Source: an uncultured bacterium
Lineage (GTDB): Bacteria; Patescibacteriota; Minisyncoccia; Phycocordibacterales; GWA1-40-21
Length of the DNA stretch: 64,000 bases
NCBI GenBank assembly: GCA_963804975.1
Contig: CAWDSG010000002.1
Span: 53,554-117,553 of the forward strand
Reading direction: 5' to 3'
The notes below the pieces were generated by a model. That model was not told where the DNA came from. It saw only the letters and a program-made list of their open reading frames with translations, and did no database searches. Within the stretch, counting starts at the first letter, position 1, and the number at the start of each line of letters is the position of its first letter. The translations under genes and the position numbers were made by a program. Shown piece after piece: positions 4,397 to 64,000 of the stretch.

Positions 4397-4400
4397 ATTT

Positions 4401-5882: not shown

Positions 5883-5936
5883 ATTATATCCGTAAGATTA
5901 TAAAAACAAAAATCCGCCAGAAGCGGATTTTTGTTT

Positions 5937-6086
5937 TTATCTTCTTTTTTTAGAAACAGAGAGTTTGGCTCTGCCTTTCTGCCTTCTCCTTTTTATAGTG
6001 TTTCTGCCGTATTTGCTCTTGCTTCGCGCGAGAAAACCATGAGTTTTCGCTCTTTTTCTTTTATTTGGCTGATACGTAAACGACAT
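5937..6086 (-). CDS. rpmH: 50S ribosomal protein L34 (below the size cut-off of the six-frame ORF list)
   Basis: Reverse-complement translation of 5937-6086 gives [49 protein letters not shown] (49 aa). This is the canonical L34 pattern, divergent from dnaA. Confidence 0.85.
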
Positions 6087-6297
6087 AAAGAAAGTATAAA
6101 CCAAAAAAGAAAAAATGTAAAGCTTGTTCAGATAAAATTTCAGGTATAATTACAAACCTCCGAACACTCGATGTTTTTTATAAAATTTGAATTTTTTTTA
6201 TTTTTGTTTTTTAATTTTACTAATCCACTTTTTATGAACACTTTGTGAACAAAAATAAATTTTAGAGAAATTCCATATCAACCTATAATTAAACCCT

Positions 6298-7629: not shown

Positions 7630-7639
7630 TTGTTTATAA

Positions 7640-7824
7640 TATATGGAGAAGTTATGGAGAGTTTGTTTGAGAAGTTGTTGAGAAAAGTTTGATAAGAAAT
7701 AGATCAAAAAATAAACAACTAATAACAAACATGAGATATTTAAAAAATTAAAAATTAAACACAAAAAACAAAGGTTAAAAAAATATAAACATAAGAACAA
7801 TATTAATAATAAATATATAATAAT
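7640..7824. promoter_or_regulatory. candidate oriC element: short GAGAAGTT-type direct repeats plus a very AT-rich stretch between dnaA and dnaN
   Basis: Motifs ggagaagtt, ggagagttt, gagaagttg and gagaaaagtttga lie within about 60 bp. An AT-rich run of over 100 bp follows, running up to the dnaN start. Confidence 0.35.
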
Positions 7825-8925
7825 ATGAAAATAGAATGTATAAAAGAAAAACTCCATATCTCCGTATCAAAAGCGGAAAAAATTGTCAGTAGAAATCAGA
7901 ATTTACCCATCCTTTCTTGTTTATTATTCCAGACAAAAGGAAATAATCTTATAATAAAATCAACCAATTTGGATTTGGGTTTGGAAATTTCCATTCCGGT
8001 AAAAGTGGAAGAGCAGGGTATTGTGGCTATTCCTGCAGGAATAATAAGCAGTTTTTTAAATAATTTAAACGAAAACAAAAATATTTCACTGGAAACAAAA
8101 GAGGGAGTTTTGAGAGTTTATACAGAAAACAGCGAAGCAAACATAAAAACACTGCCACACGACGATTTTCCTACAATTCCGCTTGTTGATAACGGCAAAA
8201 TATGCAAAATGAACTCAAAAGATCTGGGGAATGGAATCAAATCGGTCATTTACAGCGCGTCCACATCTTCTGTGAAGCCGGAACTTTCAAGTGTTTATGT
8301 ATATTCAATGGAAGATCATCTGGTTTTTGTGGCAACGGACTCATTCCGCCTTGCGGAAAAAACCATAAAAACAAAGAAAAACATGAATCTTCCCGGCATT
8401 CTCATACCGTTTAAAAATGCCTCGGATATTTTAAAAATAATCGACACAACCGACGAAGAAATAGAAATAAATTCAACAAAAAACCAAATATCTTTCACTT
8501 TCGGAGGATTATACCTTGTTTCAAGAGTCATAGACGGGGTATTTCCGGATTACAAACAGATCATACCAAAAGAAGAAAAGACAAAAATCACAGTTTTAAA
8601 GCAAGACCTCATAAATTCATTAAAACTATCAAGCATTTTCTCGGACAATTTCAACCAAATAAACATAAATGTCCAAAAAGGGGCAAAATATGTCCAGATT
8701 AAAACCAAAAATTCAAATATCGGAGAAAACACGAATAAAATAGACGCGACAACGGAAGGCGAGAGTATTGAAGTGAATTTTAATCACCGATATATCGTAG
8801 ATTGCTTGCCGTCAATTTTCTCAGACAGCGTATCTTTGTTTTTTAACGGCATAAACAAACCGCTTATCATAAAAGGGACTTCCGATAAGACATTCATGTA
8901 TTTGGTTATGCCGATGAACAGATAA
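7825..8925 (+). CDS. dnaN: DNA polymerase III beta sliding clamp
   Basis: 366 aa with typical DnaN N-terminus MKIECIKEKLHISVSKAEKIV...LPILSCLLF. Immediately downstream of dnaA. Confidence 0.9.
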   Translation: MKIECIKEKLHISVSKAEKIVSRNQNLPILSCLLFQTKGNNLIIKSTNLDLGLEISIPVKVEEQGIVAIPAGIISSFLNNLNENKNISLETKEGVLRVYTENSEANIKTLPHDDFPTIPLVDNGKICKMNSKDLGNGIKSVIYSASTSSVKPELSSVYVYSMEDHLVFVATDSFRLAEKTIKTKKNMNLPGILIPFKNASDILKIIDTTDEEIEINSTKNQISFTFGGLYLVSRVIDGVFPDYKQIIPKEEKTKITVLKQDLINSLKLSSIFSDNFNQININVQKGAKYVQIKTKNSNIGENTNKIDATTEGESIEVNFNHRYIVDCLPSIFSDSVSLFFNGINKPLIIKGTSDKTFMYLVMPMNR

Positions 8926-35870: not shown

Positions 35871-37163
35871 ATGTATAAAACGCTTTCAGGTCCAATTGCT
35901 GTGCAGATTGAGATAACCGAATTGTGCAATAACACATGCATGCATTGTTATAACTTTTTCAGACACAATGGTTATGTTTGTAAAACCATGTCCGAAAAAG
36001 AAGTTTCAATAGTTGTGAATGAATTACGGAAGCATCAAGTTATCAGGGGAACTATTACCGGAGGAGAACCGCTTATGGTCCCCGATATTTTTTTGAAATT
36101 GGTCGATGGAATGGCATCGATGGGAATGAGTATATCGGTGAACACCAACCTCATTTTTTTTAATGAAGCCATCGGAACCGAGCTACTCAAAAAAGGAGTC
36201 AAGGCCATATTGACAAGTATCATCGCTGATACCCCGGAATTACATGATTTTATAACTCAAAACCCGGGAAGTTGGGAAGGAACCATAAACGGAATCAAGC
36301 TTGCTAAAAAGATGGGTTTTCGAGTTTCAGCAAACATGGTTCTAACAAAATGGAATATCCAAAGAGTTCGTGAAGTCGGTAATCTTGCCAGTTCGCTCGG
36401 TGTGAATACATTTGGAGCGACTCGCGCTTGTTCTCCGGGTCCTATTGCGGAAGATTTTCATAAAAATATTATTTCCGTTGAGGAACTCCGAGAGAGCATA
36501 AAAATCCTCTATGAGTTAAAGGACAAGTGGAATTATCAAGTCGATGTTTTTGAACACTATCCTTGGTGTGCAATTAGCGACCTTGAGAAATACTCTCATC
36601 TGGCGAGAAGGACCTGCACAGCCGGAATAACGAGCTGTACAATAGGTACGGATGGCCAACTAAGGCCTTGCGGTCATTCCTCAATGAAGTACGGAAATAT
36701 TTTTTCCGAAGGAATATCAACTCCTTGGTTAAAAATGGCGGATTTGAGGAAACGTTTATATTCCGAATCGTGCAGAAAGTGCAGCTTATTTATGAAATGC
36801 ACTGGTGGTTGTCCGACAGAGATTCAGAATTCCCGGAACAAAAAGGATCCACATTGTATAAGCAAAAAGGACGTGGTTTCCCTTCCGGTAAAAAAAGAGA
36901 ATATCGTTGTATCATCGGATCCAGATTGTATCTACACTCTGAACAGTAAAATAGTTTTGCGCTACGAGAAGTTTGGAGGTACAATAGGATCTAGAGACAG
37001 CGATAAATTGTTATTTGCTGATAAGGAACTTTTTGATATCCTCATGAGTTTGAGGAATCAAAAGTTTTCTATCAGACAAATTTCCATTGAGTTCTCCAAG
37101 GATCTAGATCAAATTCTTCCGATATTTTCTTCTCTATTCTCGAAAGGATTTCTGGTCCAGTAA
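35871..37163 (+). CDS. radical SAM / SPASM-domain peptide-modifying enzyme
   Basis: N-terminal CX3CX2C (ITELCNNTCMHCY) and the GGEPLM motif. The C-terminus is Cys-rich and SPASM-like (CTAGITSCTIG...RPCGHSS...CRKCSLFMKCTGGCPTE). Confidence 0.85.
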   Translation: MYKTLSGPIAVQIEITELCNNTCMHCYNFFRHNGYVCKTMSEKEVSIVVNELRKHQVIRGTITGGEPLMVPDIFLKLVDGMASMGMSISVNTNLIFFNEAIGTELLKKGVKAILTSIIADTPELHDFITQNPGSWEGTINGIKLAKKMGFRVSANMVLTKWNIQRVREVGNLASSLGVNTFGATRACSPGPIAEDFHKNIISVEELRESIKILYELKDKWNYQVDVFEHYPWCAISDLEKYSHLARRTCTAGITSCTIGTDGQLRPCGHSSMKYGNIFSEGISTPWLKMADLRKRLYSESCRKCSLFMKCTGGCPTEIQNSRNKKDPHCISKKDVVSLPVKKENIVVSSDPDCIYTLNSKIVLRYEKFGGTIGSRDSDKLLFADKELFDILMSLRNQKFSIRQISIEFSKDLDQILPIFSSLFSKGFLVQ

Positions 37164-37425: not shown

Positions 37426-38130
37426 ATGGAAAAACCTTCTCAAGTAGTCAAATTTGTTATTGATAAAGATTTGGATATTAAAAACCATTTCATTGCTTTA
37501 GATGCATATAAAATAAACAAAGAACGTGGAATCTCGCAAATTAAAGAAGAAGGTTCAGAAAATCTTTTGAAACTAAACTCAAATAAAGAGATTCAAGCAG
37601 AAATCGAAAAAACCATAGAACCATATTATAGGCAACAAGAGAAACTTCTTTCCCTTGCTGATGATATAAATAAAGAATGGATAAAAATCGAAAAAGACGT
37701 TATCCATAAACTTGAAACAATCCATAAATTTCCTTTTTCATTTACCTCAATAAAGGGAGTTTTGTCCTCGGCAAATAGATTTGGGTACGATTCAAATGGT
37801 GGATGGTTTGCAACGAATATGCGACAGAATAAATATATTTGCATAGATGTTGCAACTCATGAGCTAATGCATTTTATGTTTCATAAATATTATGATCAGA
37901 TTTGTAAAGAAAAAGGTTTATCCAAAAATCAGATGTGGGATATAAAAGAATCTTTTACTGTGTTGTTAAATATTGAATTTAATCAGTTTAGATTTCAAAG
38001 TGATAATAGCAAAGGATCACCATTACATATGGCATTAAGAGAAATAATAAAAAAATCTTGGGAAAAAAATCATGACTTTGATAAAGCTTTGGAAGAAGCC
38101 ATCAAATATATCAAAAGTATTGATAAGTAA
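37426..38130 (+). CDS. HExxHxxxH-motif protein, putative zinc metallopeptidase (ImmA/IrrE/DUF955-like signature)
   Basis: ATHELMHFMFH motif in a 234-aa soluble protein. No other homology recognised by eye. Confidence 0.4.
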   Translation: MEKPSQVVKFVIDKDLDIKNHFIALDAYKINKERGISQIKEEGSENLLKLNSNKEIQAEIEKTIEPYYRQQEKLLSLADDINKEWIKIEKDVIHKLETIHKFPFSFTSIKGVLSSANRFGYDSNGGWFATNMRQNKYICIDVATHELMHFMFHKYYDQICKEKGLSKNQMWDIKESFTVLLNIEFNQFRFQSDNSKGSPLHMALREIIKKSWEKNHDFDKALEEAIKYIKSIDK

Positions 38131-38140
38131 AAAACCTGAA

Positions 38141-39892
38141 ATGCGCATAGATTCAAAACAACTGAAAGATTTTTTAATAGATTCCGGCCTTATTACCCGG
38201 AGCGAATATGACGATATTGAAAAACAGATTGAAAAGGGCGCTTCAAAAGACGCTATTGAAAAAGTCCTGGTCAGCGAGGGGAAAATCTCCGAGGATGATT
38301 TGCGCCGCGCGCAGGCGTATGTTTTCGGCATACCGTTTGTGGATTTGAAGGATCAGAAAATAGATTTTTCGGTCCTTTCCCTTATTCCGGAGCCGGTGGC
38401 GAGAAAAAATAACATTATCGCTTTCAAAAAAAATCCTGATTCCCTTGAAGTGGCGATGCTTGATACCAACGATCTTTCTTCCATTGAATTCATAAAAAAG
38501 AAAGTCGGTTTGAGGATTCTGCCGCGGCTTACCGATACCGAATCCATCAAAAGCGCAATCTTACAATACCAAAAAAGCTTGAAGGCCGAATTCGGCGACC
38601 TGATACAGAAAGATATCCTTGCCCTGAAAAATGCCGGCGAGCTCGGAGATCTTGGAGAAGGATCTTTAAAAAAAATAGCAGAAGACCTGCCGGTTGTGCG
38701 CATCGTGGAAACGCTCCTGAAACATGCTATTTTACAGAACGCATCCGATATTCACATAGAGTGCATGGAAAACGATTTGCTCATACGTTATCGCATAGAC
38801 GGCATTTTGCACGATGCTATGATTCTGCCTAAAATCGCGGCGACATCCATTACGGCGAGGATCAAAGTGCTTTCAAACCTGAAGCTTGACGAAAAACGCC
38901 TTCCGCAGGACGGGCGATTCAAGATAGAAATAAACGGCGAAAAAGTTTCTTTCAGGGTTTCAATCATTCCGACTTATTTCGGAGAAAAAACCGTCATGAG
39001 ATTGCTCCGGGAAAACGTCGGCAATTATTCTTTGGAATCAATGGGTTTCCACGGCGAGAATCTTGAAAGAATCCACGAGGCAATGAGGCGCGCAAACGGC
39101 ATGATTCTCACGACCGGCCCGACCGGCAGCGGAAAAACCACGACGCTTTACACGATTCTTGAATTGCTCAACACTCCCGATGTGAATATCGCGACCATTG
39201 AAGACCCGATTGAATATCAGGTATCTCGGATAAATCAGACGCAAGTGAAGCCCGATATCGGCTTTTCTTTTTCAAACGGACTTCGCGCTCTTGTGAGGCA
39301 GGATCCGGATATCATAATGGTCGGAGAAATCAGAGACAATGAAACCGCTTCGCTTGCCGTCAATGCCGCGCTCACGGGTCACTTGGTGCTTTCAACGCTT
39401 CACACGAATTCCGCTTCTGGCGCGGTTCCTCGGCTTATTGATATGAAAATAGAGCCATTTCTTTTGGTTTCCACAATTAATATCGTCATGGCGCAAAGAT
39501 TGGTCAGGAAACTTTGCAAAACCAAGAGCAAATATATTCTTTCAAAAATTGAACTTGCTTCGCTTGCAAAAATCGTAGACCTGGACCGCGTGCTCGCTGT
39601 GCTCAAATCGGAAAATATTGTCGGAAAGGATGACGATTGGCCAACGATATATTTTTACAAGGCAACCGAATCGGCGGAATCTAAAGACGGCTACAGCAGC
39701 AGAATCGGCATCCACGAAGTGATGAAAATGTCGCCAACGATACAGAATCTGGTCATGAAAGGCGCGACGTCGCAGGAAATAGAGAACCAATCCAAAAAAG
39801 AAGGCATGATTACTATGGTTGAAGACGGAATTTTCAAATGCGTTCAAGGTTTGACGACGATTGAAGAGGTCTTAAGAGTGGTAACGGAATAA
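38141..39892 (+). CDS. pilB: type IV pilus / type II secretion assembly ATPase (PilB/GspE family), copy 2
   Basis: GSPII_E_N-like N-terminus, Walker A ILTTGPTGSGKTTTLY, and IMVGEIRD. Heads a pilC-pilin operon. Confidence 0.85.
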   Translation: MRIDSKQLKDFLIDSGLITRSEYDDIEKQIEKGASKDAIEKVLVSEGKISEDDLRRAQAYVFGIPFVDLKDQKIDFSVLSLIPEPVARKNNIIAFKKNPDSLEVAMLDTNDLSSIEFIKKKVGLRILPRLTDTESIKSAILQYQKSLKAEFGDLIQKDILALKNAGELGDLGEGSLKKIAEDLPVVRIVETLLKHAILQNASDIHIECMENDLLIRYRIDGILHDAMILPKIAATSITARIKVLSNLKLDEKRLPQDGRFKIEINGEKVSFRVSIIPTYFGEKTVMRLLRENVGNYSLESMGFHGENLERIHEAMRRANGMILTTGPTGSGKTTTLYTILELLNTPDVNIATIEDPIEYQVSRINQTQVKPDIGFSFSNGLRALVRQDPDIIMVGEIRDNETASLAVNAALTGHLVLSTLHTNSASGAVPRLIDMKIEPFLLVSTINIVMAQRLVRKLCKTKSKYILSKIELASLAKIVDLDRVLAVLKSENIVGKDDDWPTIYFYKATESAESKDGYSSRIGIHEVMKMSPTIQNLVMKGATSQEIENQSKKEGMITMVEDGIFKCVQGLTTIEEVLRVVTE

Positions 39893-39934
39893 AAAAATTT
39901 CACTAAGATTTGGTTTGATACACCAATATTTCAT

Positions 39935-40330
39935 ATGATTAAGAAACTTATAAAAATAGTATTTTGGCTCGTTTTTATTTATTCTATAATTTTATTTTTA
40001 TCAACATCAGTTTTTGATAACTATTTAAGAAATAATCTTAATATTGATCCATATTTATATATGAAGAATATTAATATTGTAATGTTATTAGGATTTCTGC
40101 TTATTGCTTTGTTTATCTATATTATTGGACAAATGATTTTTAATCACATAAAGAATAAAAAAACAGGATTACCAGCTGGTCAAATTATTGCAACAAAGTA
40201 TGTCATATTAAGCATGATTTTATTTGTTCTTACATTTTTTAATTGGATATATTTAACTGCAGTATTTCAGCCAATGTGTGGAAATTGCTCAGCATCAACT
40301 CCTAATGTTCAGCAAATTCCAAAAATATAA
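39935..40330 (+). CDS. hypothetical 4-TM membrane protein (very AT-rich)
   Basis: Four hydrophobic helices; the local composition is AT-rich. Confidence 0.35.
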   Translation: MIKKLIKIVFWLVFIYSIILFLSTSVFDNYLRNNLNIDPYLYMKNINIVMLLGFLLIALFIYIIGQMIFNHIKNKKTGLPAGQIIATKYVILSMILFVLTFFNWIYLTAVFQPMCGNCSASTPNVQQIPKI

Positions 40331-40385
40331 TTTCTATTCCGCTGACTGAAGGAAGTTAAAACTTGTTTTGTGATACAATTTAAAC

Positions 40386-40868
40386 ATGAAAAAGACAAAT
40401 ATCTATATTGATGGCAACAATTTATATCGTTCAGCTAAAGAATTAGGTTTTGAGATTGATTATAAAAAGTTAAGAGGTTGGCTTCGGCAGAAATATAATC
40501 CAACTGCTGTTTATCTCTTTATCGGACTCGTGCCGGAAAGGGTGAAGTTTTACGAGCATCTGCAAAGCTGCGGTTATGTTTTGGTATTCAAACAGACCGT
40601 TTCCATCGGAGAAAAAGTGAAGGGAAATTGTGATGCTGAATTAGTATTAAAAACCGCGTCTGATTTTTATGAAAAATCTTTTTCTTCCTGCATTCTTATA
40701 ACAGGGGATGGTGATTTTGGTTGTCTAGTTGAATTTCTGCGGGAAAAGAAAGCGATTGAGCGTGTCATCGCACCAGATGAAAAGAAATGTTCAATTTTAC
40801 TAAAAAACAAAAACATAGAAATCACCTTTTTGAATAATTTGTATCATAAATTTTCAAGTAAGATCTAA
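40386..40868 (+). CDS. NYN-domain (LabA/DUF88-like, PIN-fold) protein
   Basis: IYIDGNNLY N-terminal motif and ITGDGDFGCLVEFL, characteristic of NYN-domain proteins. Confidence 0.65.
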   Translation: MKKTNIYIDGNNLYRSAKELGFEIDYKKLRGWLRQKYNPTAVYLFIGLVPERVKFYEHLQSCGYVLVFKQTVSIGEKVKGNCDAELVLKTASDFYEKSFSSCILITGDGDFGCLVEFLREKKAIERVIAPDEKKCSILLKNKNIEITFLNNLYHKFSSKI

Positions 40869-41113
40869 AAGAAAAAGCCCCCAATGCAGACGGATCTGCA
40901 TCAGGGTCTTTTCCGTAGTGATGCCAATATTATATACCTGCCATATCTTTTATGCAAGTAGCTGTATAGGGAATTGAAAAAGTTCACTTCTGCTCCACTA
41001 GCTAGAGGAAGTAAGAACACATTTTATTTTTGACAACGTACATTCAATATGATATTCTATGCATGAATTAAGTAATAAATAAAGTAATAAATACGATTAA
41101 GGAGAATTTTATA

Positions 41114-41368
41114 ATGTTCTTTCAAAAGCTTGTGATGTGGCTTAAACAACATGTTTTTAAAGTAAAGCGGAAACAGGTTGTTTCTCAGCTAACTCTTCAA
41201 AGAGGAATTGAAAAAATCAACCATATATCTTCCATTAGCATGAAAGAGATGGAGAAATCGGGACTTATTTCTCGTCAGTCTCCAAATCACAACTTTGGAG
41301 GAGTTCATTACGATAAGGACGGTGATTGGAGTCCCAATGACTGCTCGGCAGATTGTGGCGGCCTATGA
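41114..41368 (+). CDS. small hypothetical protein
   Basis: 84-aa ORF with a plausible SD aaggag. The C-terminus is CSADCGG. Confidence 0.3.
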   Translation: MFFQKLVMWLKQHVFKVKRKQVVSQLTLQRGIEKINHISSISMKEMEKSGLISRQSPNHNFGGVHYDKDGDWSPNDCSADCGGL

Positions 41369-41543
41369 TGTTTAAAGGTCTAAGAGGTCATGTGCATAAT
41401 ATGCATCTTGACCTCTTTTTAATAGCTGATTCATTCCAAAACGATCTCAACATCGTTCTAGATAGGGGAGAACGTTTTTGGAGGAAGTCAGAATCTATTT
41501 TTTCAATAAATATGATAAAATATAGCTAGTAAATGTCTGTTAT

Positions 41544-42761
41544 ATGGAAAAATTCAAATTCAAAGCCATAGGGAAGAATAAAGAGATTTACGAGGGGATC
41601 AGGGAATCCGAAGATAAATTTTCCCTGTACAACGAACTCAAAGCGGAAGGCAGCACGCTTGTCATAGCGGAAAAAATCGGCCGCGAAAGACATTGGTTTG
41701 ATCCGATAATCGCTCTTTTCGGCGGAGTTCCGGAATACCAGAAAATAATTTTTACCAAAAATCTCGGTCATATGATTGACGCTGGGCTTCCTATCGCAAA
41801 AAGTTTGTCGGTTTTGGAAAAGCAGATTAAAAACAAACATTTCAAAAACATCATTCTTTCAATTGAAGCGGAAATCAGGAAAGGTCAGACACTCTCTGAT
41901 GCCGCGGCGATGTATCCGCATATATTTTCAAATCTGTTTGTATCCATGGTAAAGGCGGGAGAAGAGTCCGGCAAACTTTCGGAATCTCTTGGGATTGTCG
42001 GCGAGCATATGGACAGCGTGTATAAATTAAAAAAGAAAATCAGAGGAGCAATGATTTATCCGGGCATCATTATCTCTCTTATGATTGTAATCGGAATACT
42101 TATGCTTATTTATGTGGTGCCGTCGATTACGGCAACATTCGAAAGTTTGAACGAAACATTGCCGGTATATACTCAAATTTTGATTTCCTCGAGCAATTTT
42201 TTGAAAAATAATATAGCATTATCTCTTTTTTCAATCATTGCTCTTGTCCTCGTTATTTATTTTTTCTTACTTTCCAAAATCGGCAAGCGATTTTTTGATT
42301 CCGTTTCGTTGAAATTGCCCGTTATCGGAGAAATAATAAAAGAAACAAACTCGGCCAGCATGACGCGGACCATTTCGTCTTTGCTGTCTTCGGGCGTGTC
42401 ATTTGATAAAGCGATTCTTATTACGGGCGATGTGGTGGGCAACGTTTTTTTCAAGGATATTTTGAGCGAAGCAGTTATAAAGGTGGAAAAAGGGGAAACA
42501 ATATCAAGCGTTTTCCTCGCGAATACGCGTTTGGTTCCTGATTTTGTCGGAGAGATGATGGGCGTGGGGGAAGAAACCGGCCGATTGCCGTCAATGCTTA
42601 TGGAAGTCGCCGTTTTTTATGAAAATTCCGTTGATCAGAAGACAAAAGATATGTCCACCATCATTGAGCCGGTGCTTATGATAATCATCGGCATCGCAGT
42701 CGGGTTCTTTGCTCTCGCGGTTATCAAGCCGATTTACTCCGTGATGAACAACATAAGCTGA
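41544..42761 (+). CDS. pilC: type IV pilus assembly platform protein PilC/GspF
   Basis: Two GspF repeats with three TM segments, and MEKFKFKAIGKNKEIYEG N-terminus typical of PilC. Confidence 0.85.
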   Translation: MEKFKFKAIGKNKEIYEGIRESEDKFSLYNELKAEGSTLVIAEKIGRERHWFDPIIALFGGVPEYQKIIFTKNLGHMIDAGLPIAKSLSVLEKQIKNKHFKNIILSIEAEIRKGQTLSDAAAMYPHIFSNLFVSMVKAGEESGKLSESLGIVGEHMDSVYKLKKKIRGAMIYPGIIISLMIVIGILMLIYVVPSITATFESLNETLPVYTQILISSSNFLKNNIALSLFSIIALVLVIYFFLLSKIGKRFFDSVSLKLPVIGEIIKETNSASMTRTISSLLSSGVSFDKAILITGDVVGNVFFKDILSEAVIKVEKGETISSVFLANTRLVPDFVGEMMGVGEETGRLPSMLMEVAVFYENSVDQKTKDMSTIIEPVLMIIIGIAVGFFALAVIKPIYSVMNNIS

Positions 42762-52958: not shown

Positions 52959-53564
52959 ATGAATTTGCCGAAAGGTGCGTTTAAAATCCATCCTGAAAGC
53001 GTAAAATCTTATCTTTCTAAAATTTCAACCGGAAATTGGGGGTTTGTTGCCGGAACAAAAACTTTAGCTGAACTTATGGCTGAAATAGAAAAAGGTGAAA
53101 GTTTTTTGGCAAATGCCGGCAAGCTCGGCGTTGTTCGTATTGTTTCAGCCGTTCAGGTCACTGTCTGCTATCGGAACCTTATTTTGCTGGAGCTCTACCG
53201 TAAAAAGAACGGCAAATTTTCATATCGGCCACTTTGCGCTTCTCTTTCGGAAAAGATTAATCCCGGGGAGAAACCCAAAGAAGCGGTTTTTCGCAGTATT
53301 CGCGAGGAATTGGGTGTTTCAGCCGAAGGCAATTTGGCATCATTAGCATCTTCCAGAAGAAAGACGGAAGTCAATGATTCGGGAAGTTTCCCGGGGCTTA
53401 AAACAATCTACTATTTTTATCCTTTCAAAGTTCGTTTTCGGTCTCGGATATACAAAGCAAAAGGTTATATTACAGATGAAAAAGGACGCATAACTCGTTT
53501 CATATGGTCAACGAGAGAATCAGGGGAAAGTGTCTTTAAAGAAAATTCCTTAGAATCAGTTTGA
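52959..53564 (+). CDS. Nudix hydrolase
   Basis: Nudix box GEKPKEAVFRSIREELGV (Gx5Ex7REUxEExGU). Confidence 0.6.
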   Translation: MNLPKGAFKIHPESVKSYLSKISTGNWGFVAGTKTLAELMAEIEKGESFLANAGKLGVVRIVSAVQVTVCYRNLILLELYRKKNGKFSYRPLCASLSEKINPGEKPKEAVFRSIREELGVSAEGNLASLASSRRKTEVNDSGSFPGLKTIYYFYPFKVRFRSRIYKAKGYITDEKGRITRFIWSTRESGESVFKENSLESV

Positions 53565-53605: not shown

Positions 53606-54271
53606 TTATATCAAATATTTTTCTATTTCTGCAAACGAAGCCAGCTGCGGGCAATTCGCTTCATCTGTTTTTTCTTTTATATTTACCAAAATGCAATTGA
53701 TGCCAAGATCATTTGGAACGATATAATCACTTGCGATTCTGTCTCCCACATACAAAAATTGCCCAGGTTTGAATTGCGGATATTTTTTCATCCATATTTT
53801 ATAAGATGCGCCATCTGATTTTAACCCATCATTTTTTGTGATGATATTGCTGAATGAATCGGTGCGGAATCCAAGATGTTTCAATTTTAATTTTGTTATT
53901 TTTAAATTTGAACCGGTTACAAGGTCCAGATTATCGTATTTTTCCTTTAATTTCTTAATGATATCCAAGGTTTTTTTGTCAGGGCTGAGAAATTTTGCTA
54001 TATTGGCTTTTTCAAGAGCTGTTTGGACAACTTCTTTAGCGTCTGGGATGCCCAACGCTTCTAAACTTTTTCTTCCGCTAAGCCCAGTGCCGTTTTTATA
54101 CAGATCTTTAAAAAGCTTTTCAGATTCTTTTATGGTTGTTTTTTTGTATTTTGATATTATCTGATATATGTATTTTTGTATGGCAGCATCAATTTCTGGC
54201 GACTTGGGATACAGGGTCTGATCCAAATCAAAGCCGATTACTTTTATATTTTTTTTGTAATCAAATTCCAT
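53606..54271 (-). CDS. HAD-superfamily hydrolase/phosphatase
   Basis: Motif I VIGFDLDQTLY (DxDxT), motif II TGS, and motif IV GDRIASD. Confidence 0.7.
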   Translation of the reverse strand: MEFDYKKNIKVIGFDLDQTLYPKSPEIDAAIQKYIYQIISKYKKTTIKESEKLFKDLYKNGTGLSGRKSLEALGIPDAKEVVQTALEKANIAKFLSPDKKTLDIIKKLKEKYDNLDLVTGSNLKITKLKLKHLGFRTDSFSNIITKNDGLKSDGASYKIWMKKYPQFKPGQFLYVGDRIASDYIVPNDLGINCILVNIKEKTDEANCPQLASFAEIEKYLI

Positions 54272-54272
54272 A

Positions 54273-56696
54273 TCAGTTTATATTACCGACATATATTATC
54301 ACAAATTCGCCCAGATCTTTTTTAAGCTCTTTTTTATATTGCGTTATCAGATAATTCACAAGATTCTTGTCGTCATCCATATTTTTTATCTTATGGTTCA
54401 TAAACACTGCGGAAGCATAAATTTTTCCTCCGCAGACATTTGCCTGGAAAAATGCCAGCATATCGGATTGCGGATCCGTTTTTCCGGGAATATATTCGCT
54501 TATTATCGGATTATTATGCTTATCGCCCTTTTTAACAAGATAATCTATGGCTTTTTTGAGTATATTGACCCCGTTGTAATTTTCCAGATTGTCCATGATT
54601 TTATTTTTTGGCCTATCATTATTTTCTTTCGCCTGTTCGGTAAGCATTGCAACCGCATTTTTTGATTTTATTTGGCCGCTTCCTTTCAGATTGTACGGCC
54701 CGCTGTCGTTGTTCACTTCACCGCAGGGTTTGGACGGTTCGGAAAGGATTTTTTTTGTCCTTTGCTCTTCGGACAATAGCAGAATATTCGCCCTGTTTGA
54801 AAACATAAACATATCGCCGGATTTCAGGCCAAGAGCTTCTCTTAAGGGAACTACATAAGCGTCATGCAATCCAAAAACATTTTCCGGATAAGCGTTCACT
54901 ATATTGTGCGCTCTTGCTATATGGAACGAATGCAATTTCCCGTCTTCAACGAAGAATATATCGTGCGTCAAGCATGGATCATGTGAAAATTTCAGTTTTT
55001 TTGTATCGGGATCAACATAAAAAGACATATCTTTTACAGGATCGAATCTTTGGACTATAGTGGCGGAATTTTTATTTTTCAACAGAGTTTTTTTCGTTGT
55101 TCCCATCTGATCAAAGCCGAAATAAGCCCTTGTCCTTTCGCCATAAGTATATGTGCCGTCATTGTCTTTTCTTAATAATTGCTCTTTATAGGCATTTCTC
55201 ACTTCTTCGCCCGTCTGGTCTCCCTGCTTGTATATTTCGGGAAATATTTTTAATGCAGAATCGGCATTTCTATAAATCGCAAGCACCGAAGCCGATCTTG
55301 CGAGCCCTTTCCATTCATCGCCGTGATTTTCGGTCAGGCCTTCGGTATAAACTTTTCGCAATACAGCTTTATGCGCGTCCAAAAACGAATCGCTTTCAAC
55401 GGTAAGAAAAGGAAACCTCGTCTTGTTCGTCTTGAATATGGGAATAAAATCCTGGATGAACGTGTAGCCGAATTTTGACGCTATTCCAGCCCTGCTTACT
55501 TGGATGCCGATATCCAATCTGTGCAGAAAATCCATTTCGTATTTTTCAAATCTGTCCAATTTGGCGATTTCTTCAAGAATGACAGAAACACTGTTTGATA
55601 AAAGCTCAAAAACTTCTTCGCAAGCGTCAAAAGCCAGGCACATGACACGAATGCCTTTTTCATCGCTGTTTATCTTATAGTAATACTTATTATCCATTTT
55701 CAATTTGATCTGATTTTCTATAGGAACTTCTTTTGTGCCGGTTATTTTATTTTCTTTGACGAAAGATTTAACTTTTATATCATTTGACAATTCTATGTTG
55801 GCCCGCCCGAGTTCCGCGCCCAAAACGACCTGGTCAATCAGAGAAAATGAATCTTTTTCTTCACCTAAAAATTTCAAAAGGGTATATCCTATGAGAAAGG
55901 GAATTTCCGATTTTATAAAAATGATTCCTTTTTTGGTTTTTATATCAAGCCGTATGTATTTTCTTTCAGCAACCGATACTCTGAAAGGGCAGTCAAAAGT
56001 TTTATCTTTGCCGGACAATACAATTTTTGGCGGTTCAAGATACCTATATTCCTTCGGATCTATGAATATATCGCCTTTTTTCTTTGTTTTTGCCGAAGCG
56101 ACGGCGGAAATAAGCTTGTTTAAAGAGTCGTAATATATATTTTCTTTTTTATTGATTTCTTCCAGGAGTGAAAGGATTTTCGGGTCGATTTTCGGCCTCA
56201 GCCAATTCAGATAATTTTCCACTATTTTTTTACTTGCCTCATTTTTGTGCATAAATACCGGCAATACGGTAATTTCTTTTTTGAATAATTCTATTATATT
56301 TTTGCTCAGGTTCGGATAGTGAGGGGAGGCGGCAATGCCGTCTTTTATATAATTTCCTCCTTTGCCTTCCACAAATCCATTCTGCATGGCCTGAAGCAAA
56401 TTTGTGCTCGGAGCGAATGTAACGGTTTCTTCGGAAAAAAGTATGAGATATTTCTGGGTCGGATGGGCAAGGCAGTTCAATATCATTCTCTCAACGCCAT
56501 CGCGGTTTACAATAAGCGAGCCAAGCACTGCCACATTTTTCCTGTTGGAACTTTCTATGCTGTTCAGGACTTCTCCGGGAGATGTCGTGTTTGTGCAGAT
56601 GCCGATCAGGCCGTGGTCGCCTTCTTTGGGTGTTAAAAGTATCGCTTCCACCAGCGGAAATTTTGTTTTTATTTTTTTATTCGTGATTTCAGCCAT
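54273..56696 (-). CDS. 807-aa multidomain protein containing a thymidylate-synthase-fold (ThyA / pyrimidine hydroxymethylase superfamily) segment fused to about 440 aa of unknown N-terminal domains
   Basis: Residues around 480-640 align by eye to ThyA: GERTRAYFGFDQMG, DPCLTHDIFFVEDGKLHSFHIARAHN (the PCH...FQFYV..GKLSCQLYQRSxD region, with the nucleophile Cys) and LKSGDMFMFSNRANI (LKPGDF..TLGDAHIY). The N-terminal part could not be recognised. Confidence 0.45.
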   Translation of the reverse strand: MAEITNKKIKTKFPLVEAILLTPKEGDHGLIGICTNTTSPGEVLNSIESSNRKNVAVLGSLIVNRDGVERMILNCLAHPTQKYLILFSEETVTFAPSTNLLQAMQNGFVEGKGGNYIKDGIAASPHYPNLSKNIIELFKKEITVLPVFMHKNEASKKIVENYLNWLRPKIDPKILSLLEEINKKENIYYDSLNKLISAVASAKTKKKGDIFIDPKEYRYLEPPKIVLSGKDKTFDCPFRVSVAERKYIRLDIKTKKGIIFIKSEIPFLIGYTLLKFLGEEKDSFSLIDQVVLGAELGRANIELSNDIKVKSFVKENKITGTKEVPIENQIKLKMDNKYYYKINSDEKGIRVMCLAFDACEEVFELLSNSVSVILEEIAKLDRFEKYEMDFLHRLDIGIQVSRAGIASKFGYTFIQDFIPIFKTNKTRFPFLTVESDSFLDAHKAVLRKVYTEGLTENHGDEWKGLARSASVLAIYRNADSALKIFPEIYKQGDQTGEEVRNAYKEQLLRKDNDGTYTYGERTRAYFGFDQMGTTKKTLLKNKNSATIVQRFDPVKDMSFYVDPDTKKLKFSHDPCLTHDIFFVEDGKLHSFHIARAHNIVNAYPENVFGLHDAYVVPLREALGLKSGDMFMFSNRANILLLSEEQRTKKILSEPSKPCGEVNNDSGPYNLKGSGQIKSKNAVAMLTEQAKENNDRPKNKIMDNLENYNGVNILKKAIDYLVKKGDKHNNPIISEYIPGKTDPQSDMLAFFQANVCGGKIYASAVFMNHKIKNMDDDKNLVNYLITQYKKELKKDLGEFVIIYVGNIN

Positions 56697-56709
56697 TTTG
56701 CATTTATTT

Positions 56710-57597
56710 TTATTTCCAGTTTTTGCTGTTCCATGAATTTGGAAGATATTCCGGCATCGTATGCTCGTCCGTTTTATCGGAATTCATAGAAAAACAATAT
56801 ATTTTTGGATTCAAATTGAATTTGGCGGATATTTCCGCGATGAATTGCCGGCAGATGCCGCACATATTGCACGGTTCATCCGCGTATTTTGTTGAAATCA
56901 ATCCTATATGGGTTATTTCCGCATTCTTATCCATTATTGCGGAAAGTATTGCGCACATTTCCGAATGCAGCCCCAATCTTTTGTCCGGGCTTGAATATTG
57001 CCCGGCAAAATACAACGTGCTGTTTTTTGTTATGACAGCCGTGCCATAACCCGAGGCCTTATCTGATGTCGGAAAATTCCTGCTTACGCCTTTTATAGCA
57101 TATTCTTTAAGTTTTTTTATTTTATCTTCTTCATTTTTAACTTTAATATCAACTTTATTCGGGGAAATATCCGAATTTTTCGTCATAGAAAGGATATTTG
57201 GTTTCGGATTGTAATATTCGGCCAGTTTTATCGCATTTTCCGCCGATAAAAGCGTTTTTCCTTCGGAATTTATCATTTCGTACGATATCGGAACGCCGGT
57301 TCTTATAGAATGGTCGATTATTATCTCAACAGTTTGCGGTAAAACCAAAACATCGGCATCAAAATTATCCGAAAGCGTGATTATCTTCTTGATTTTATAA
57401 TCTTTTGCCGAGGAAGCCAGCATCAGGGAAATTTGCTCCGAGCTTATATTCAACAGATGTGTGTCAGAATCCACCGAGCCGGCCGCATAAATATTCCCTT
57501 TATCCGATATGGCTACGGACGATGTTCTTTTGCTGTCTTTTTTTTTGCTGACGCACAAATTCAGGGCATCTTTTAATATTTTTGTATAATCGCGCAT
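56710..57597 (-). CDS. cdd: tandem-domain cytidine/deoxycytidine deaminase
   Basis: The C-terminal domain has HSEMCAI and PCNMCGICRQFIAE (the CDA zinc-binding signature). The N-terminal domain is CDA-like but lacks the zinc ligands. Confidence 0.65.
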   Translation of the reverse strand: MRDYTKILKDALNLCVSKKKDSKRTSSVAISDKGNIYAAGSVDSDTHLLNISSEQISLMLASSAKDYKIKKIITLSDNFDADVLVLPQTVEIIIDHSIRTGVPISYEMINSEGKTLLSAENAIKLAEYYNPKPNILSMTKNSDISPNKVDIKVKNEEDKIKKLKEYAIKGVSRNFPTSDKASGYGTAVITKNSTLYFAGQYSSPDKRLGLHSEMCAILSAIMDKNAEITHIGLISTKYADEPCNMCGICRQFIAEISAKFNLNPKIYCFSMNSDKTDEHTMPEYLPNSWNSKNWK

Positions 57598-57600
57598 ATT

Positions 57601-58500
57601 TTAAAATACGTCTATATTGCTTCTCAATCTGCTGATATTCAATTTAGTGTCGCTCCAGTCGTAATGCAGAACTTTCTTTAAAAAGTCATTGAAAAGGTGG
57701 ATCTTGTCCCTTTCGAGCTTAGGATACATTTTTTCCGATCTCTTGCTTGAAAGGCGTATAGTCGGCCTGAAAGGCATTGGGAAAGCGTAATATGGCACGA
57801 GAGAGGTTTCTTTTTGCGGTTCCACAAGGATGACGTTTATCGGTTCGTTGAGATATTCGGTGGCGTAATCTATCCTGTGGCTGCCGTCGCAGACAATGTA
57901 AAAATCAAAAGGACCGGTGTAGGGAACGCCGTAATTTATAATAGGCGCGTTTGAATTGAAAATATCCAAATATTTTATTGCACTTACCTCGTCAATGAAA
58001 AAATTCTGAAGATATCTGTTTGAGATTTTGTGGAGATATTCTTGAGCGTCCTTTACGCAGTATCCGTCAAATTTTTCCACCAGTTTGTCCAAATCCACAT
58101 AGCCGCCTTTCAGATAATAAGTGTGCTTTTCGACGATAGGCGGAATCATATGGTACGAATCTCTTCCTTCCCAGTCATAATTGATTCCCCCTTCCATTTC
58201 ATTGACCCTCATTTTTTCTCCTTTGAGAAATTCATCAACGGTTTTAATTATATCAAGCTGGTTCAAATAGATCGTCGGCTGTGGAGAAAAAAGAATCTCT
58301 CTTTTTTTGCCGTTCTGTATGGTGGGAAAATCGCACATTGATTTCGGCGGATAAACTTTCGTGAGGGAAAATTTTGCATTCGCATACGGCTTTATTTTTT
58401 CTCCTCTTTTGTCGTATATGCCCCGGAACGCCACTTTTCCGAGCACGTTTTTCAGCTCTTCAAAGCTTATTTTATTTTTAAATGTTAATTTGTGTTCCAT
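57601..58500 (-). CDS. hypothetical protein (conserved context with cdd and ThyA-like genes)
   Basis: 299 aa with no P-loop or other motif recognised. The stop is 3 nt from the cdd start, so it is probably co-transcribed. Confidence 0.35.
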   Translation of the reverse strand: MEHKLTFKNKISFEELKNVLGKVAFRGIYDKRGEKIKPYANAKFSLTKVYPPKSMCDFPTIQNGKKREILFSPQPTIYLNQLDIIKTVDEFLKGEKMRVNEMEGGINYDWEGRDSYHMIPPIVEKHTYYLKGGYVDLDKLVEKFDGYCVKDAQEYLHKISNRYLQNFFIDEVSAIKYLDIFNSNAPIINYGVPYTGPFDFYIVCDGSHRIDYATEYLNEPINVILVEPQKETSLVPYYAFPMPFRPTIRLSSKRSEKMYPKLERDKIHLFNDFLKKVLHYDWSDTKLNISRLRSNIDVF

Positions 58501-58627
58501 ATTTATCCGGTATTTATTAATAAAATATGATGAAATTTATACTATAATTATATCACTTATTAAGCAAGGGTGCGGATATCGGTTTTTAATGATATTCTAT
58601 GCTAAAGCGCTGTATTTTAATTTAAAA

Positions 58628-59050
58628 ATGATTCTAAAAATCAAAAAACTTCATAAGGACGCGAAAATACCTAGCTATGCGCATCATGACGATGCGGGAT
58701 TTGATCTGTTTTCAGTCAAAGATTTTAAGGTGAGGAAAGGCGAGCGGATTGGCGTGCCGACGGGAGTCGCAATGGAAATACCGGAAGGATATGTCGGCCT
58801 GGTCTGGGATAAAAGCGGGCTTGCCATAAAGCACGGAATAAAAACCATTGCTGGAGTTGTGGATTCAACATATCGGGGAGAAATATTCGTTGGTGTGATA
58901 AATTTCGGCGAAAGCGATTATATTTTTGAAAAGGGCCACAAAATAGCACAGATGATAATTCAGAAAAAAGAAAAAGTTGATTTTGAAGAAGCAAAGGAAT
59001 TATCCGATACTATACGAGGTGAAAATGGCTTTGGAAGCACAGGGAAATAG
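58628..59050 (+). CDS. dut: dUTP diphosphatase
   Basis: AGFDLF, GLVWDKSGLAIKHGI and GVVDSTYRGEI are the trimeric dUTPase motifs. The start is placed at ATG 58628. Confidence 0.85.
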   Translation: MILKIKKLHKDAKIPSYAHHDDAGFDLFSVKDFKVRKGERIGVPTGVAMEIPEGYVGLVWDKSGLAIKHGIKTIAGVVDSTYRGEIFVGVINFGESDYIFEKGHKIAQMIIQKKEKVDFEEAKELSDTIRGENGFGSTGK

Positions 59051-59472: not shown

Positions 59473-60411
59473 CTATTTTTTAGGATTTACGGGATAAAGT
59501 TTTTCGTCTATCACTCGTGTAAAGCAAACATTTCCGATTCCATGCTGCCAATTTTCGTTTGTTGTCGAATTTGTATAAATTGCCGGCATTGCGACATTTG
59601 AATTTGCCGTACTTGTGCTTGCCGCTGTTTTAAATGTGGCACAAAGTTCAAAACTATTTGCCGCAAGTTTTTTGTATTCATAAGGCAATTTTGTTTCCGG
59701 ATCTGTTGGTACTGTATACCCGCTTATCGGATCATTCAAAGCGTTTAAATTTGCCGGAACTGTGCCTTTATTTTGCCATTGCTGATAAACCAACTGGCCT
59801 TGGATGCTTGAAAGATCACTTACTCTTGTTTCATCCATCATTTTTGCTCTTTGCATTGCTGGAGAACCGATGAGAACAATTCCGTAGACAATAGCCGCCG
59901 AAACAACAACCGACACCAAAATTATTTTTATTTTAATTTTTTTGCTGTATTCAAAAACCGTTCTTCTCAAATCATAAAGTGAGGATCTGAACACCACTAT
60001 CGCAACTGCGAGAACAAAGAAAACTTTCAGGAAAAATCTCAAGGTCAGATCTTCTGCGCCGAGAAATCTATATACCAATGTTGCCAAATCAATCGCGATG
60101 GTAAGTCCGGTGACAAAAAGGGTTAGAAAAATCATCCATCTTCTTACCCACATATCTTTTTTCTCCGGATTTATTTTCAAATCTTTATTTACTATTTTTG
60201 ATATGTATAAAAACGCAGGGAAGAAAATGATAAGCGCGGCGATTGCGCCTCTGATCGTGTAATCTGTCTGGCCCAGGTATTCTCCTATGAGCGGAAAAAC
60301 ATTGTCAATTATTTGGAATACCAAAATCAGAAAACTTATCGCGCTTACATAAAGTCCGATAATTATTCCCAATGAAAGAAAAAAATCTTTTGCTGTTGTT
60401 TTTGATTGCAT
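59473..60411 (-). CDS. hypothetical polytopic membrane protein
   Basis: Five or six TM helices in the N-terminal 200 aa, with a C-terminal soluble domain. Confidence 0.4.
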   Translation of the reverse strand: MQSKTTAKDFFLSLGIIIGLYVSAISFLILVFQIIDNVFPLIGEYLGQTDYTIRGAIAALIIFFPAFLYISKIVNKDLKINPEKKDMWVRRWMIFLTLFVTGLTIAIDLATLVYRFLGAEDLTLRFFLKVFFVLAVAIVVFRSSLYDLRRTVFEYSKKIKIKIILVSVVVSAAIVYGIVLIGSPAMQRAKMMDETRVSDLSSIQGQLVYQQWQNKGTVPANLNALNDPISGYTVPTDPETKLPYEYKKLAANSFELCATFKTAASTSTANSNVAMPAIYTNSTTNENWQHGIGNVCFTRVIDEKLYPVNPKK

Positions 60412-63230: not shown

Positions 63231-64000
63231 ATGGCCGAAAAAAACAATCAAAAACAGGAGAAATCGCAAAAAACCGCTGTAAAAAGCAAAATAGCCGAAA
63301 GAGAAGAGGAAATTTTGCAATTCTGGCAGAAAAAGGAAATTTTCAAAAAAACACTTGAAAAGCCGTCAAAAGGCGAATTCATATTTTATGATGGTCCGCC
63401 TTTTGCCTCCGGACTTCCGCACTACGGGCATATTCTTGCCGGCACCATGAAAGATTATATCGGCAGATACGAGACGATGAAGGGTATGTATGTGCCGAGG
63501 CGCTGGGGCTGGGATTGCCATGGCCTTCCCATTGAAAATCTTGTTGAAAAGGATCTGGGTTTGAAATCGAAAAAAGATATAGAAGATTTTGGTTTGGAAA
63601 AATTCAACGATATCGCCCGGACAAAAGTTTTCACTTATGTTGATGACTGGAAAAAAGTTATTCCGAGAATGGGCCGTTTTGTGGATATGGAAAACGATTA
63701 TAGGACGATGAATCCGACATTCACCGAAACTGTCTGGTGGATTTTCAAAGAACTTCATAAGAAAGGTCTGGTTTATGAAGGATTCAAATCAATGCACATT
63801 TGCCCTCATTGCGAGACGACACTTTCCAATTTTGAAGTCGGACAGGGATACAAAGATATCGCCGATATTTCCATAACCGCAAAATTTGAGCTTGCTGACG
63901 AACCGGGAACTTATTTTCTGGCATGGACCACAACTCCGTGGACTTTGCCCGGAAATGTTGCTTTGGCTGTTGGAAATGACATTGATTATGTAAAAATGTC
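63231..64000 (+). CDS. ileS: isoleucyl-tRNA synthetase, N-terminal part (3' end outside window; not in the listed six-frame track, where only a minus-strand shadow ORF 63366-63758 appears)
   Basis: Manual translation gives MAEKNNQ...FIFYDGPPFASGLPHYGHILAGTMKDYIGRY...WDCHGLPIE...LAWTTTPWTLPGN. These are the class I HIGH region and the WTTTPWTLP signature of IleS. Confidence 0.9.
   Translation, partial: MAEKNNQKQEKSQKTAVKSKIAEREEEILQFWQKKEIFKKTLEKPSKGEFIFYDGPPFASGLPHYGHILAGTMKDYIGRYETMKGMYVPRRWGWDCHGLPIENLVEKDLGLKSKKDIEDFGLEKFNDIARTKVFTYVDDWKKVIPRMGRFVDMENDYRTMNPTFTETVWWIFKELHKKGLVYEGFKSMHICPHCETTLSNFEVGQGYKDIADISITAKFELADEPGTYFLAWTTTPWTLPGNVALAVGNDIDYVKM

Follow-up and report, generated by a model that had tools for sequence, protein, structure and literature searches.

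A conserved, probable pyrimidine-conversion cassette of candidate phyla radiation bacteria encodes a multidomain ThyA-like protein with an altered cofactor pocket

An essential process and a classic target for drugs, the synthesis of thymidylate is generally considered to come in two forms, ThyA and ThyX. Here we describe a four-gene cassette in a 64,000-nt stretch of DNA from an uncultured bacterium (contig CAWDSG010000002.1, positions 53,554-117,553, assembly GCA_963804975.1), referred to below as the window; all coordinates are positions in it. The cassette consists of four minus-strand open reading frames (ORFs) with the same direction, encoding proteins of 299, 295, 807 and 221 residues and separated by 3, 13 and 1 nt. 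It is divergent from dut and convergent with a Nudix hydrolase gene, and this arrangement of four same-strand genes with both neighbours, pointed out in an earlier note on this DNA, was confirmed by the ORFs and by Pfam and NCBIfam matches. From the sequence evidence we propose, with moderate confidence, that the cassette is a conserved pyrimidine-conversion module in which the 807-residue protein, here called T800, modifies a uracil nucleotide at C5, most likely by converting dUMP to dTMP by non-canonical cofactor chemistry. We read T800 as a thymidylate-forming enzyme because of its fold, its nucleophile, a retained uracil-specificity residue (N177 in Escherichia coli ThyA), the deaminase next to it, a genomic context of dut, serine hydroxymethyltransferase (SHMT) and Tmk, and its housekeeping-like conservation. 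The features are as follows.

54273-56696, minus strand: gene 3, multidomain ThyA-like protein T800, 807 residues
56187-56639, minus strand: T800 residues ~20-170, MtrA-like Rossmann/flavodoxin-like domain
55707-56186, minus strand: T800 residues ~171-330, helical and beta region with no family match, modelled confidently by AlphaFold2 (AF2)
55449-55706, minus strand: T800 residues ~331-416, PterinBD-DUF4346-like domain (hhalign)
54732-55424, minus strand: T800 residues ~425-655, catalytic ThyA-fold domain of the methanogen-type branch
54972-54974, minus strand: codon of Cys575, predicted nucleophile (E. coli C146), invariant in 47 sequences
54903-54905, minus strand: codon of Asn598, cofactor-pocket substitution (E. 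coli D169), invariant in 47 sequences
54276-54731, minus strand: T800 residues 656-807, second, degenerate ThyA half-domain (hhalign)
57601-58500, minus strand: gene 1, 299-residue protein with a beta-rich N-terminal region and a C-terminal ParB/sulfiredoxin (Srx)-fold domain, candidate NTP-dependent partner or kinase
57874-57888, minus strand: DGSHR motif of gene 1, residues 205-209, predicted nucleotide-binding site of ParB/Srx type
56710-57597, minus strand: gene 2, whole ORF, 295 residues
57148-57597, minus strand: N-terminal half of gene 2, pseudo-cytidine deaminase (CDA) domain without zinc site (hhalign between the halves)
56710-57147, minus strand: C-terminal half of gene 2, cytidine-deaminase-type catalytic domain (H211-x-E213, C246-x-x-C249-R-Q, C-terminal LP motif)
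53606-54271, minus strand: gene 4, HAD-IA phosphatase, TIGR02253/CTE7-like, resembling pyrimidine 5'-nucleotidases, 221 residues
58589-59050, plus strand: dut (dUTP diphosphatase), divergent neighbour, likely start 58589 or 58628 (TIGR00576, 152 bits; also a called gene in locus L001)
52959-53564, plus strand: Nudix hydrolase, convergent with the HAD gene, recurrent neighbour (PF00293, 26.2 bits)

The ThyA signal of T800 is detected only through the NCBIfam model TIGR03283, profile-profile comparison and the fold; sequence searches of PDB chains with the 807-residue protein and with the family profile returned weak MtrA matches and nothing else. In profile comparison the catalytic domain matches methanogen-type ThyA at 99.6% (hhalign), showing that it is homologous to this group, although outside the TIGR03283 equivalog. 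The AF2 model of T800 (pLDDT 86.8, pTM 0.75) has as its best structural match in the PDB the entry 9iqc, which is essentially RB69 gp48 (phmmer E 4.5e-162; motif MRSQN). The peptide that had been aligned by eye with thymidylate synthase, residues 573-638, is therefore placed in a ThyA fold by profile comparison, by the fold and by the 9iqc match, and the conservation of its nucleophilic cysteine, also claimed beforehand, holds across 47 sequences.

Residues given in brackets from here on are those of E. coli ThyA. The hhalign comparison of the family with the single E. coli sequence had the right register at 13% probability; it was used for residue mapping alone, and the mapping was confirmed in a 144-sequence alignment. 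Besides C575 (C146), the phosphate clamp R595 (R166) and the residues N606 (N177), Y518 (Y94), N598 (D169), R635 (D205) and N637 (H207) are invariant in the 47 sequences; for A596 (S167) and L639 (Y209) conservation is 95% or higher. The resulting motifs are R-A-H-N and S-N-R-A-N-I-L, compared with R-[S/A]-[H/N/Q]-D and S-x-H-x-Y in methanogen-type ThyA. The position aligned with L143 is His572 (Lys in three of seven archaeal-clade sequences), and the following residue, Asp573 (A144), is invariant.

Flavin-dependent synthesis of 5-hydroxy-dCMP is the activity of phage ThyA homologues that have D169N (PMC13326640, 2026). In that work D169N, validated on nine diverse homologues, is diagnostic of flavin enzymes and goes with a folate-to-flavin switch, N177D marks a cytosine substrate, and an acidic residue at L143 marks a non-methyl product (PMC13326640). 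T800 has D169N and retains the uracil-specifying N177 as N606. By analogy with the phage enzymes, this suggests that the T800 pocket may hold a flavin or another non-pterin cofactor.

Part of the more distant relatives show the same substitution. Among 96 such relatives, 72 are Asp-type (R-S-[H/N/Q]-D ... S-S-H-x-Y), a set to which most MtrA-ThyA fusions and the short ThyA proteins of methanogens belong, and 23 are Asn-type (R-[T/S/A]-H-N) and have lost both H207 and Y209. The Asp-to-Asn change hence co-varies with loss of the sugar 3'-OH ligands, pointing to a distinct pocket. The invariance of N598 in T800, together with the loss of H207 and Y209, indicates that a different pocket has probably been selected for, rather than reached by drift. 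Mean ThyA-domain identity of T800 to the Asp-type, the Asn-type and the cousin group described below is 23-26%, which does not single out a sister group.

Most of the sequence outside the catalytic domain could also be assigned. The N-terminal ~440 residues, unrecognised in the earlier note, in fact contain an MtrA-like and a PterinBD-DUF4346 domain. The former has an MtrA-like Rossmann fold and scores 24.3 bits against PF04208, below the cutoff of 25. Its Glu69 corresponds to Glu54 of MtrA and a meander-like segment is kept; the position of His84, the lower axial cobalt ligand of MtrA (PMC4915002), is occupied by the invariant Phe94. Neither mtr genes nor a C-terminal membrane helix were found with T800. 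Residues 331-416 align with the PF14251 segments of relatives (hhalign 97.3%, E 2.3e-11), and PF14251 matches were found in the 810-906-residue cousins and in archaeal ThyA fusions. The intervening region, ~171-330, aligns with the same cousin family.

The C-terminal tail of roughly 150 residues, likewise left without assignment before, aligns with ThyA columns 86-202 (hhalign 96.1%, E 3.4e-9). The idea that it is a novel domain was thereby ruled out: it is a degenerate ThyA core that has no Cys at the nucleophile position and carries an invariant H727-N728-N729 where ThyA has R126/R127. In the ThyA homodimer, R126 and R127 extend into the active site of the partner subunit. At its own R126/R127 positions the live domain of T800 shows no conservation (S/A). 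We infer that T800 may be a single-chain pseudo-heterodimer, the dead half-domain standing in for the second ThyA subunit. Taken together, D169N, H207N, Y209L and S167A, with HNN in place of R126'/R127', lead us to argue that the reaction is not the textbook donation of both carbon and hydride by methylene-tetrahydrofolate (CH2-THF).

T800 is widespread and strongly conserved. At least 135 full-length homologues were found in many lineages of the candidate phyla radiation (CPR), mostly with at least 50% identity (the lowest value among the matches listed being 47%), and the nearest relative, from a Candidatus Paceibacterota metagenome-assembled genome, is 81% identical, which places the window in a genome of the CPR/Patescibacteria. 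A profile search of 1.84 billion representatives recovered about eight full-length T800 representatives at 50% clustering. A scan of one genome per species gave 49 loci, which were examined with 10 kb on each side and span Paceibacteria, Nomura-, Zambryski-, Vogel-, Kaiser-, Sungii-, Peri- and Gracilibacteria and Saccharimonadales. A further clade, at 41-44% identity, lies on contigs labelled Woesearchaeota, Nanoarchaeia or Nanoarchaeota, labels that come from the record titles. One of these contigs, L046, with Cdc6/Orc1 and LonB, is truly archaeal, and another, L053, carries DUF460, which we take to be an archaeal family. A third, L042 (labelled Candidatus Woesearchaeota), has matches to sigma-70 regions 2 and 4 at 7304-8125 and 4305-6566, beside NucS and an AsnC-type regulator; the sigma-70-like ORFs make its label or its binning doubtful.

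The cassette is kept together almost everywhere: the 299-residue gene and the deaminase directly upstream each accompany T800 in 40 of 41 assessable loci, and the HAD gene in 44 of 45. Two gene fusions were observed, deaminase with T800 (P0246) and T800 with HAD (P0247). Within 10 kb upstream, argS occurs in 23 of 35 loci, dut in 16, SHMT in 13, FolD in 2 and Tmk in 1, while secE-nusG-rplK is usually on the opposite side of the cassette. T800 has a housekeeping character, with mostly at least 50% identity across CPR classes, few clusters at 50%, and secE-nusG-rplK and argS alongside. No canonical ThyA and no homologue of ThyX or FolA was found in any fetched locus or in the window; for ThyX, the search was made by phmmer with the T. 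maritima sequence and covered the window and L001-L054. A tblastn search against 50,697 phage records gave no match and PHROGs a single weak thymidylate synthase match, and on these results a recent phage origin was rejected. Public annotations name the relatives 'hypothetical protein' or, generically and by JGI and PGAP, 'thymidylate synthase', and no description of the T800 family, DUF4346, ParB-CE or MtrA-ThyA fusions was found in the literature.

The other cassette proteins fit a pathway of pyrimidine nucleotides, in agreement with the metabolic context proposed earlier, for which a Cdd-like deaminase, a nucleotidase-like HAD protein and a divergent dut now speak. The 295-residue protein is a tandem CDA fold, as had been noticed (N-terminal against C-terminal half, hhalign 95.5%, E 1.5e-8), and we can add that its zinc site is in the C-terminal half alone; the N-terminal half has Ser53 at the position of the zinc-binding His and no CxxC. 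The C-terminal half scores 26.8 bits against PF00383 (cutoff 25) and matches TIGR01354 (E 1.6e-8) and CDA structures in the PDB; NCBIfam equivalog cutoffs are not reached. Its H211, E213, C246, C249 and Q251 are invariant in 45 sequences.

The 221-residue protein matches PF13419 (42.5 bits, cutoff 23.8), TIGR02253 (E 1.6e-14) and TIGR01993 (E 2.7e-11), and its HAD motif I (DxDxT) is FDLDQT, residues 13-18. The 299-residue protein, previously listed as unknown, has a ParB/Srx-type NTP-binding domain with a DGxHR-type motif, binding being predicted from sequence. Its C204, D205, G206, H208 and R209 are invariant in 30 homologues, and its DGSHR aligns with DGMHR of the ParB-CE protein of Deltaproteobacteria bacterium Smac51. 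A Nudix homologue stands beside HAD in ~15 loci, convergent in most of them; in the Peribacteria loci L024, L027 and L028 it follows HAD immediately and in the same direction. It may be a fifth cassette component, e.g. a pyrimidine dNTP pyrophosphatase.

Two groups of relatives with partly similar neighbourhoods were compared with T800. Cousin proteins of 810-906 residues (P0265, P0271, P0274, P0276, P0278 and P0293) have its five-part architecture (hhalign 100%, 701 columns). Like T800 they are accompanied by a ParB-CE gene, in their case directly upstream, and have Asn at H207; unlike T800 they keep Asp169 and have Arg at Y209, their identity to it is ~22-29%, and a deaminase or HAD neighbour was present in neither of the two loci seen. 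Between ParB-CE and the gene of an 877-residue cousin there is a gap of ~770 nt without a called gene (L056:7228-8001, L055:3323-4096).

The second group comprises Asn-type ThyA-DUF4346 proteins of free-living anaerobes, namely Desulfoglaeba alkanexedens (WP_246041832.1), which is a strict anaerobe and sulfate reducer, and strain Smac51 (UQZ90930.1). They share with T800 the R-x-H-N motif, the loss of H207 and Y209, and operons with a C-to-U deaminase, a TIGR02253-type HAD and/or ParB-CE. They differ in having ~500 residues, no second ThyA half, DUF4346 at the C-terminus and a deaminase of ComEB rather than Cdd type. The D. alkanexedens operon contains a ComEB-type dCMP deaminase, the Asn-type ThyA-DUF4346 and a TIGR02253-type HAD, of the same subfamily as in the cassette; that of Smac51 contains ParB-CE, a dCMP deaminase and the Asn-type ThyA. 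The ComEB-type deaminases are not orthologous to the CPR Cdd-like protein, so that C-to-U deaminases were recruited twice to the same neighbourhood, which is strong evidence for a uracil-nucleotide substrate made from a cytosine one. This replacement of the Cdd-like protein by a dCMP deaminase in Deltaproteobacteria, with the synteny with dut, SHMT and once Tmk, strengthens the cytosine-to-uracil-to-thymine logic first put forward for the locus. Moreover, the presence of an Asn-type enzyme in a strict anaerobe indicates that Asn-type enzymes are not all O2-dependent hydroxylases.

Downstream of HAD in D. alkanexedens (L057:12206-16792, CP040098), an alpha/beta hydrolase, a CbiA/ParA-like ATPase, a FolE2-type GTP cyclohydrolase I (PF02649) and a 557-residue AAA_33 kinase-like protein were observed, which might together form a wider gene cluster connected with pterins or nucleotides.

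Archaeal ThyA of Asp type and canonical appearance likewise carries fused MtrA-like and DUF4346 domains; one such protein, P0280 (190.8 bits), is over the TIGR03283 cutoff. In most ThyA-fused MtrA-like domains the cobalt-ligand His is absent. One Asp-type MtrA-ThyA fusion, P0288 (cluster member labelled Thermoprotei archaeon), lies amid small hypothetical ORFs, a resolvase and a PD-(D/E)XK protein (L061:8001-9569), a region that looks like a virus or mobile element.

We propose the following scheme. The Cdd-like deaminase and dut would supply uracil nucleotides, and SHMT a one-carbon unit that T800 would install. The dead half-domain would replace the second ThyA subunit and present H727-N728-N729 to the live site, where a bound flavin or other non-pterin hydride/methylene relay would act, possibly recharged by the MtrA-like and DUF4346 domains. 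By analogy with the logic of fused dihydrofolate reductase and thymidylate synthase (DHFR-TS), these two domains may form a pterin- or flavin-recharging module. As for the two remaining proteins, the one with the ParB/Srx fold would act as an NTP-dependent partner, and a nucleotide or cofactor would be the substrate of the HAD phosphatase. The suggestion that the extra domains supply a one-carbon donor in the place of folate found no support: SHMT and FolD lie beside the cassette in many relatives, which suggests an ordinary CH2-THF pool, and the same domains occur on ordinary Asp-type archaeal ThyA.

Taken to its full extent, this scheme would make T800 a third mechanistic class of thymidylate synthase. 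Such an enzyme would combine the ThyA fold and Cys nucleophile with a D169N pocket for a flavin or non-pterin relay, a single-chain pseudo-heterodimer, a recharging module and an NTP-dependent ParB/Srx partner. Because tetrahydrofolate would not be oxidised, DHFR would be dispensable, and the enzyme would be the sole dTMP source of most CPR bacteria and some DPANN archaea. We put this larger proposal forward tentatively and hold it more doubtful than the pyrimidine-conversion role itself.

Several points weigh against T800 being a dTMP-forming enzyme of this kind. Its TIGR03283 score, 58.5 bits (E 6.3e-16), is far below the equivalog cutoff of 174.55, and neither PF00303 nor TIGR03284 matches. 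The changes at D169, H207, Y209, S167 and R126'/R127' mean that the sugar-phosphate of the substrate, or the product, could differ. The geometry of the pseudo-heterodimer is derived from sequence and overall pTM. Finally, ParB-CE and HAD recur whichever type of deaminase is present, and it is hard to see what use a dTMP-forming enzyme would have for a phosphatase next to it or fused with it.

A detour from dCMP to dC (by HAD), to dU (by Cdd) and to dUMP (by the ParB-like protein as kinase) was considered and fits the CPR operon. It was rejected as a general explanation because HAD and ParB-CE recur with a dCMP-type deaminase, and ParB-CE also without any deaminase (Deltaproteobacterial operons, cousins).

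Among the alternatives, the one that survives best is an ordinary folate-dependent ThyA, which turns dUMP and CH2-THF into dTMP and dihydrofolate. The substitutions would then be tolerated drift and the MtrA-like and DUF4346 domains a fused dihydropterin reductase or a regulatory or scaffold module. The context of dut, SHMT and deaminase fits this reading equally well, MtrA-like and DUF4346 domains do accompany canonical-looking Asp-type enzymes such as P0280, no folA was seen in the loci or the window, and the JGI and PGAP name is 'thymidylate synthase'. However, N598 is invariant through two domains of life and co-varies with the H207/Y209 loss, as it does in the separate Asn-type clade, and in the validated phage enzymes D169N goes with the folate-to-flavin switch (PMC13326640). 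We therefore consider an ordinary ThyA unlikely.

Still less probable, in our opinion, is that T800 hydroxylates C5 of a uracil nucleotide with flavin and O2, in parallel to the phage 5-hydroxy-dCMP synthases but specific for uracil, and that HAD then releases a 5-hydroxy nucleoside for a modified base or metabolite. A phage-like C5-hypermodification had been offered as the alternative from the outset. In its favour, D169N and the match to 9iqc are both indications of the branch of phage 5-hydroxy-dCMP synthases. Against it, N177 is not Asp, phage matches are absent, no glycosyltransferase neighbours were found at cassette loci, and the setting beside dut, SHMT, Tmk and translation genes is a housekeeping one. 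A simple O2-dependent hydroxylase also fits poorly with the retained N177 and with Asn-type relatives in a sulfate reducer that is strictly anaerobic. We also know of no core role for 5-hydroxyuracil nucleotides, and these are mutagenic.

A dUMP/UMP hydroxymethylase or other hypermodification enzyme, giving DNA or RNA with a non-canonical pyrimidine as suggested in the earlier note, seems improbable to us: the known hydroxymethylases keep, to our knowledge, Asp169, phage homology is missing, the neighbours are dut, SHMT and Tmk, and complete long-read CPR genomes argue against wholesale base replacement. Least credible of all is a corrinoid-dependent methyl transferase, in which the MtrA-like domain would carry methyl-cobamide for attack by the Cys-activated C5 of dUMP and ParB/Srx would be an NTP-dependent reductive activator, since the cobalt ligand His84 is an invariant Phe, most ThyA-fused MtrA-like domains likewise lack the His, and the associated one-carbon gene is SHMT rather than a methyl-THF-forming enzyme.

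Other features of the neighbourhood may be recorded briefly. Directly after dut lies a Cro/C1-type helix-turn-helix gene (PF13443, 59146-59394), which could be a candidate regulator of the divergent dut/cassette promoter region, and on the other strand from it a DUF5671 membrane protein (59473-60411). A promoter and terminator scan did no better than on shuffled sequence and was left unused. A radical-SAM/SPASM protein (35871-37163) is followed by type IV pilus/type II secretion system genes (38072-42761), typical of CPR, that include a PilB-like ATPase with an MshEN domain and a PilC-like platform protein. In two CPR genomes the isoleucyl-tRNA synthetase beside argS contains an inserted histidine-phosphatase domain (PF00300, His_Phos_1), an unusual fusion for an aminoacyl-tRNA synthetase. 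One is L001:1-3466 (at least 1195 residues, the gene running off the end of the locus; window ~63231-64000) and the other L002:14055-17867 (1270 residues).

The cassette represents a very strongly conserved, ThyA-derived system, apparently a regular possession of much of the CPR radiation, that also occurs in a clade with archaeal, DPANN-labelled contigs. The genomes of its hosts are minimal, and how these organisms manage their nucleotides is poorly understood. The active site joins the uracil-specificity residue of thymidylate synthase with the substitution that marks the folate-to-flavin switch in phage enzymes. Characterisation would tell how these organisms make dTMP, and whether the ThyA fold supports further C5 chemistry in cells and not in phages alone. 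It would also give functions to three widespread orphan modules (the His-less MtrA-like domain, DUF4346 and ParB-CE) and correct automatic annotations that range from 'hypothetical protein' to 'thymidylate synthase'.

Compared with known systems, the closest relatives of the T800 catalytic domain are methanogen-type ThyA (TIGR03283, ~200 residues, e.g. M. jannaschii MJ0757) and the archaeal MtrA-ThyA-DUF4346 fusions (460-520 residues). T800 and methanogen-type ThyA have in common the motifs YxYGxR, DQ, PC(L/M), xRxHx and SxxxI and the N177 equivalent, but in T800 Asn takes the place of both D169 and H207, Leu that of Y209 and Ala that of S167. The archaeal fusions share its MtrA-like and DUF4346 accessory domains; T800 differs from them in that DUF4346 comes before and not after ThyA, and in having a ~160-residue insert and an added dead half-ThyA domain. 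The phage 5-hydroxy-dCMP synthases (RB69 gp48/9iqc and DLP3 gp80; PMC13326640) also have D169N. However, they are 238-residue proteins from glycosylation clusters, with D177 and with H207 and R126/R127 kept, whereas T800 keeps N177, has lost H207 and Y209, and is a multidomain protein of a cellular housekeeping operon.

MtrA, the corrinoid subunit of methyl-tetrahydromethanopterin:coenzyme M methyltransferase, has His84 where T800 has Phe, and its membrane helix and mtr operon have no counterpart with T800. Bifunctional DHFR-TS is echoed in the fusion of a thymidylate synthase to accessory domains, but T800 has no DHFR domain. With canonical ThyA (EC 2.1.1.45, E. coli), at ~22% identity, T800 shares the fold, the Cys nucleophile, R166, N177 and Y94, and the two are alike in their genomic tie to dut, SHMT and dCMP/dC deamination. 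Other residues stand in T800 for the Asp that contacts the pterin ring, for the ligands of the sugar and for the arginines contributed by the partner subunit, and the canonical homodimer presumably has an intramolecular pseudo-dimer as its counterpart.

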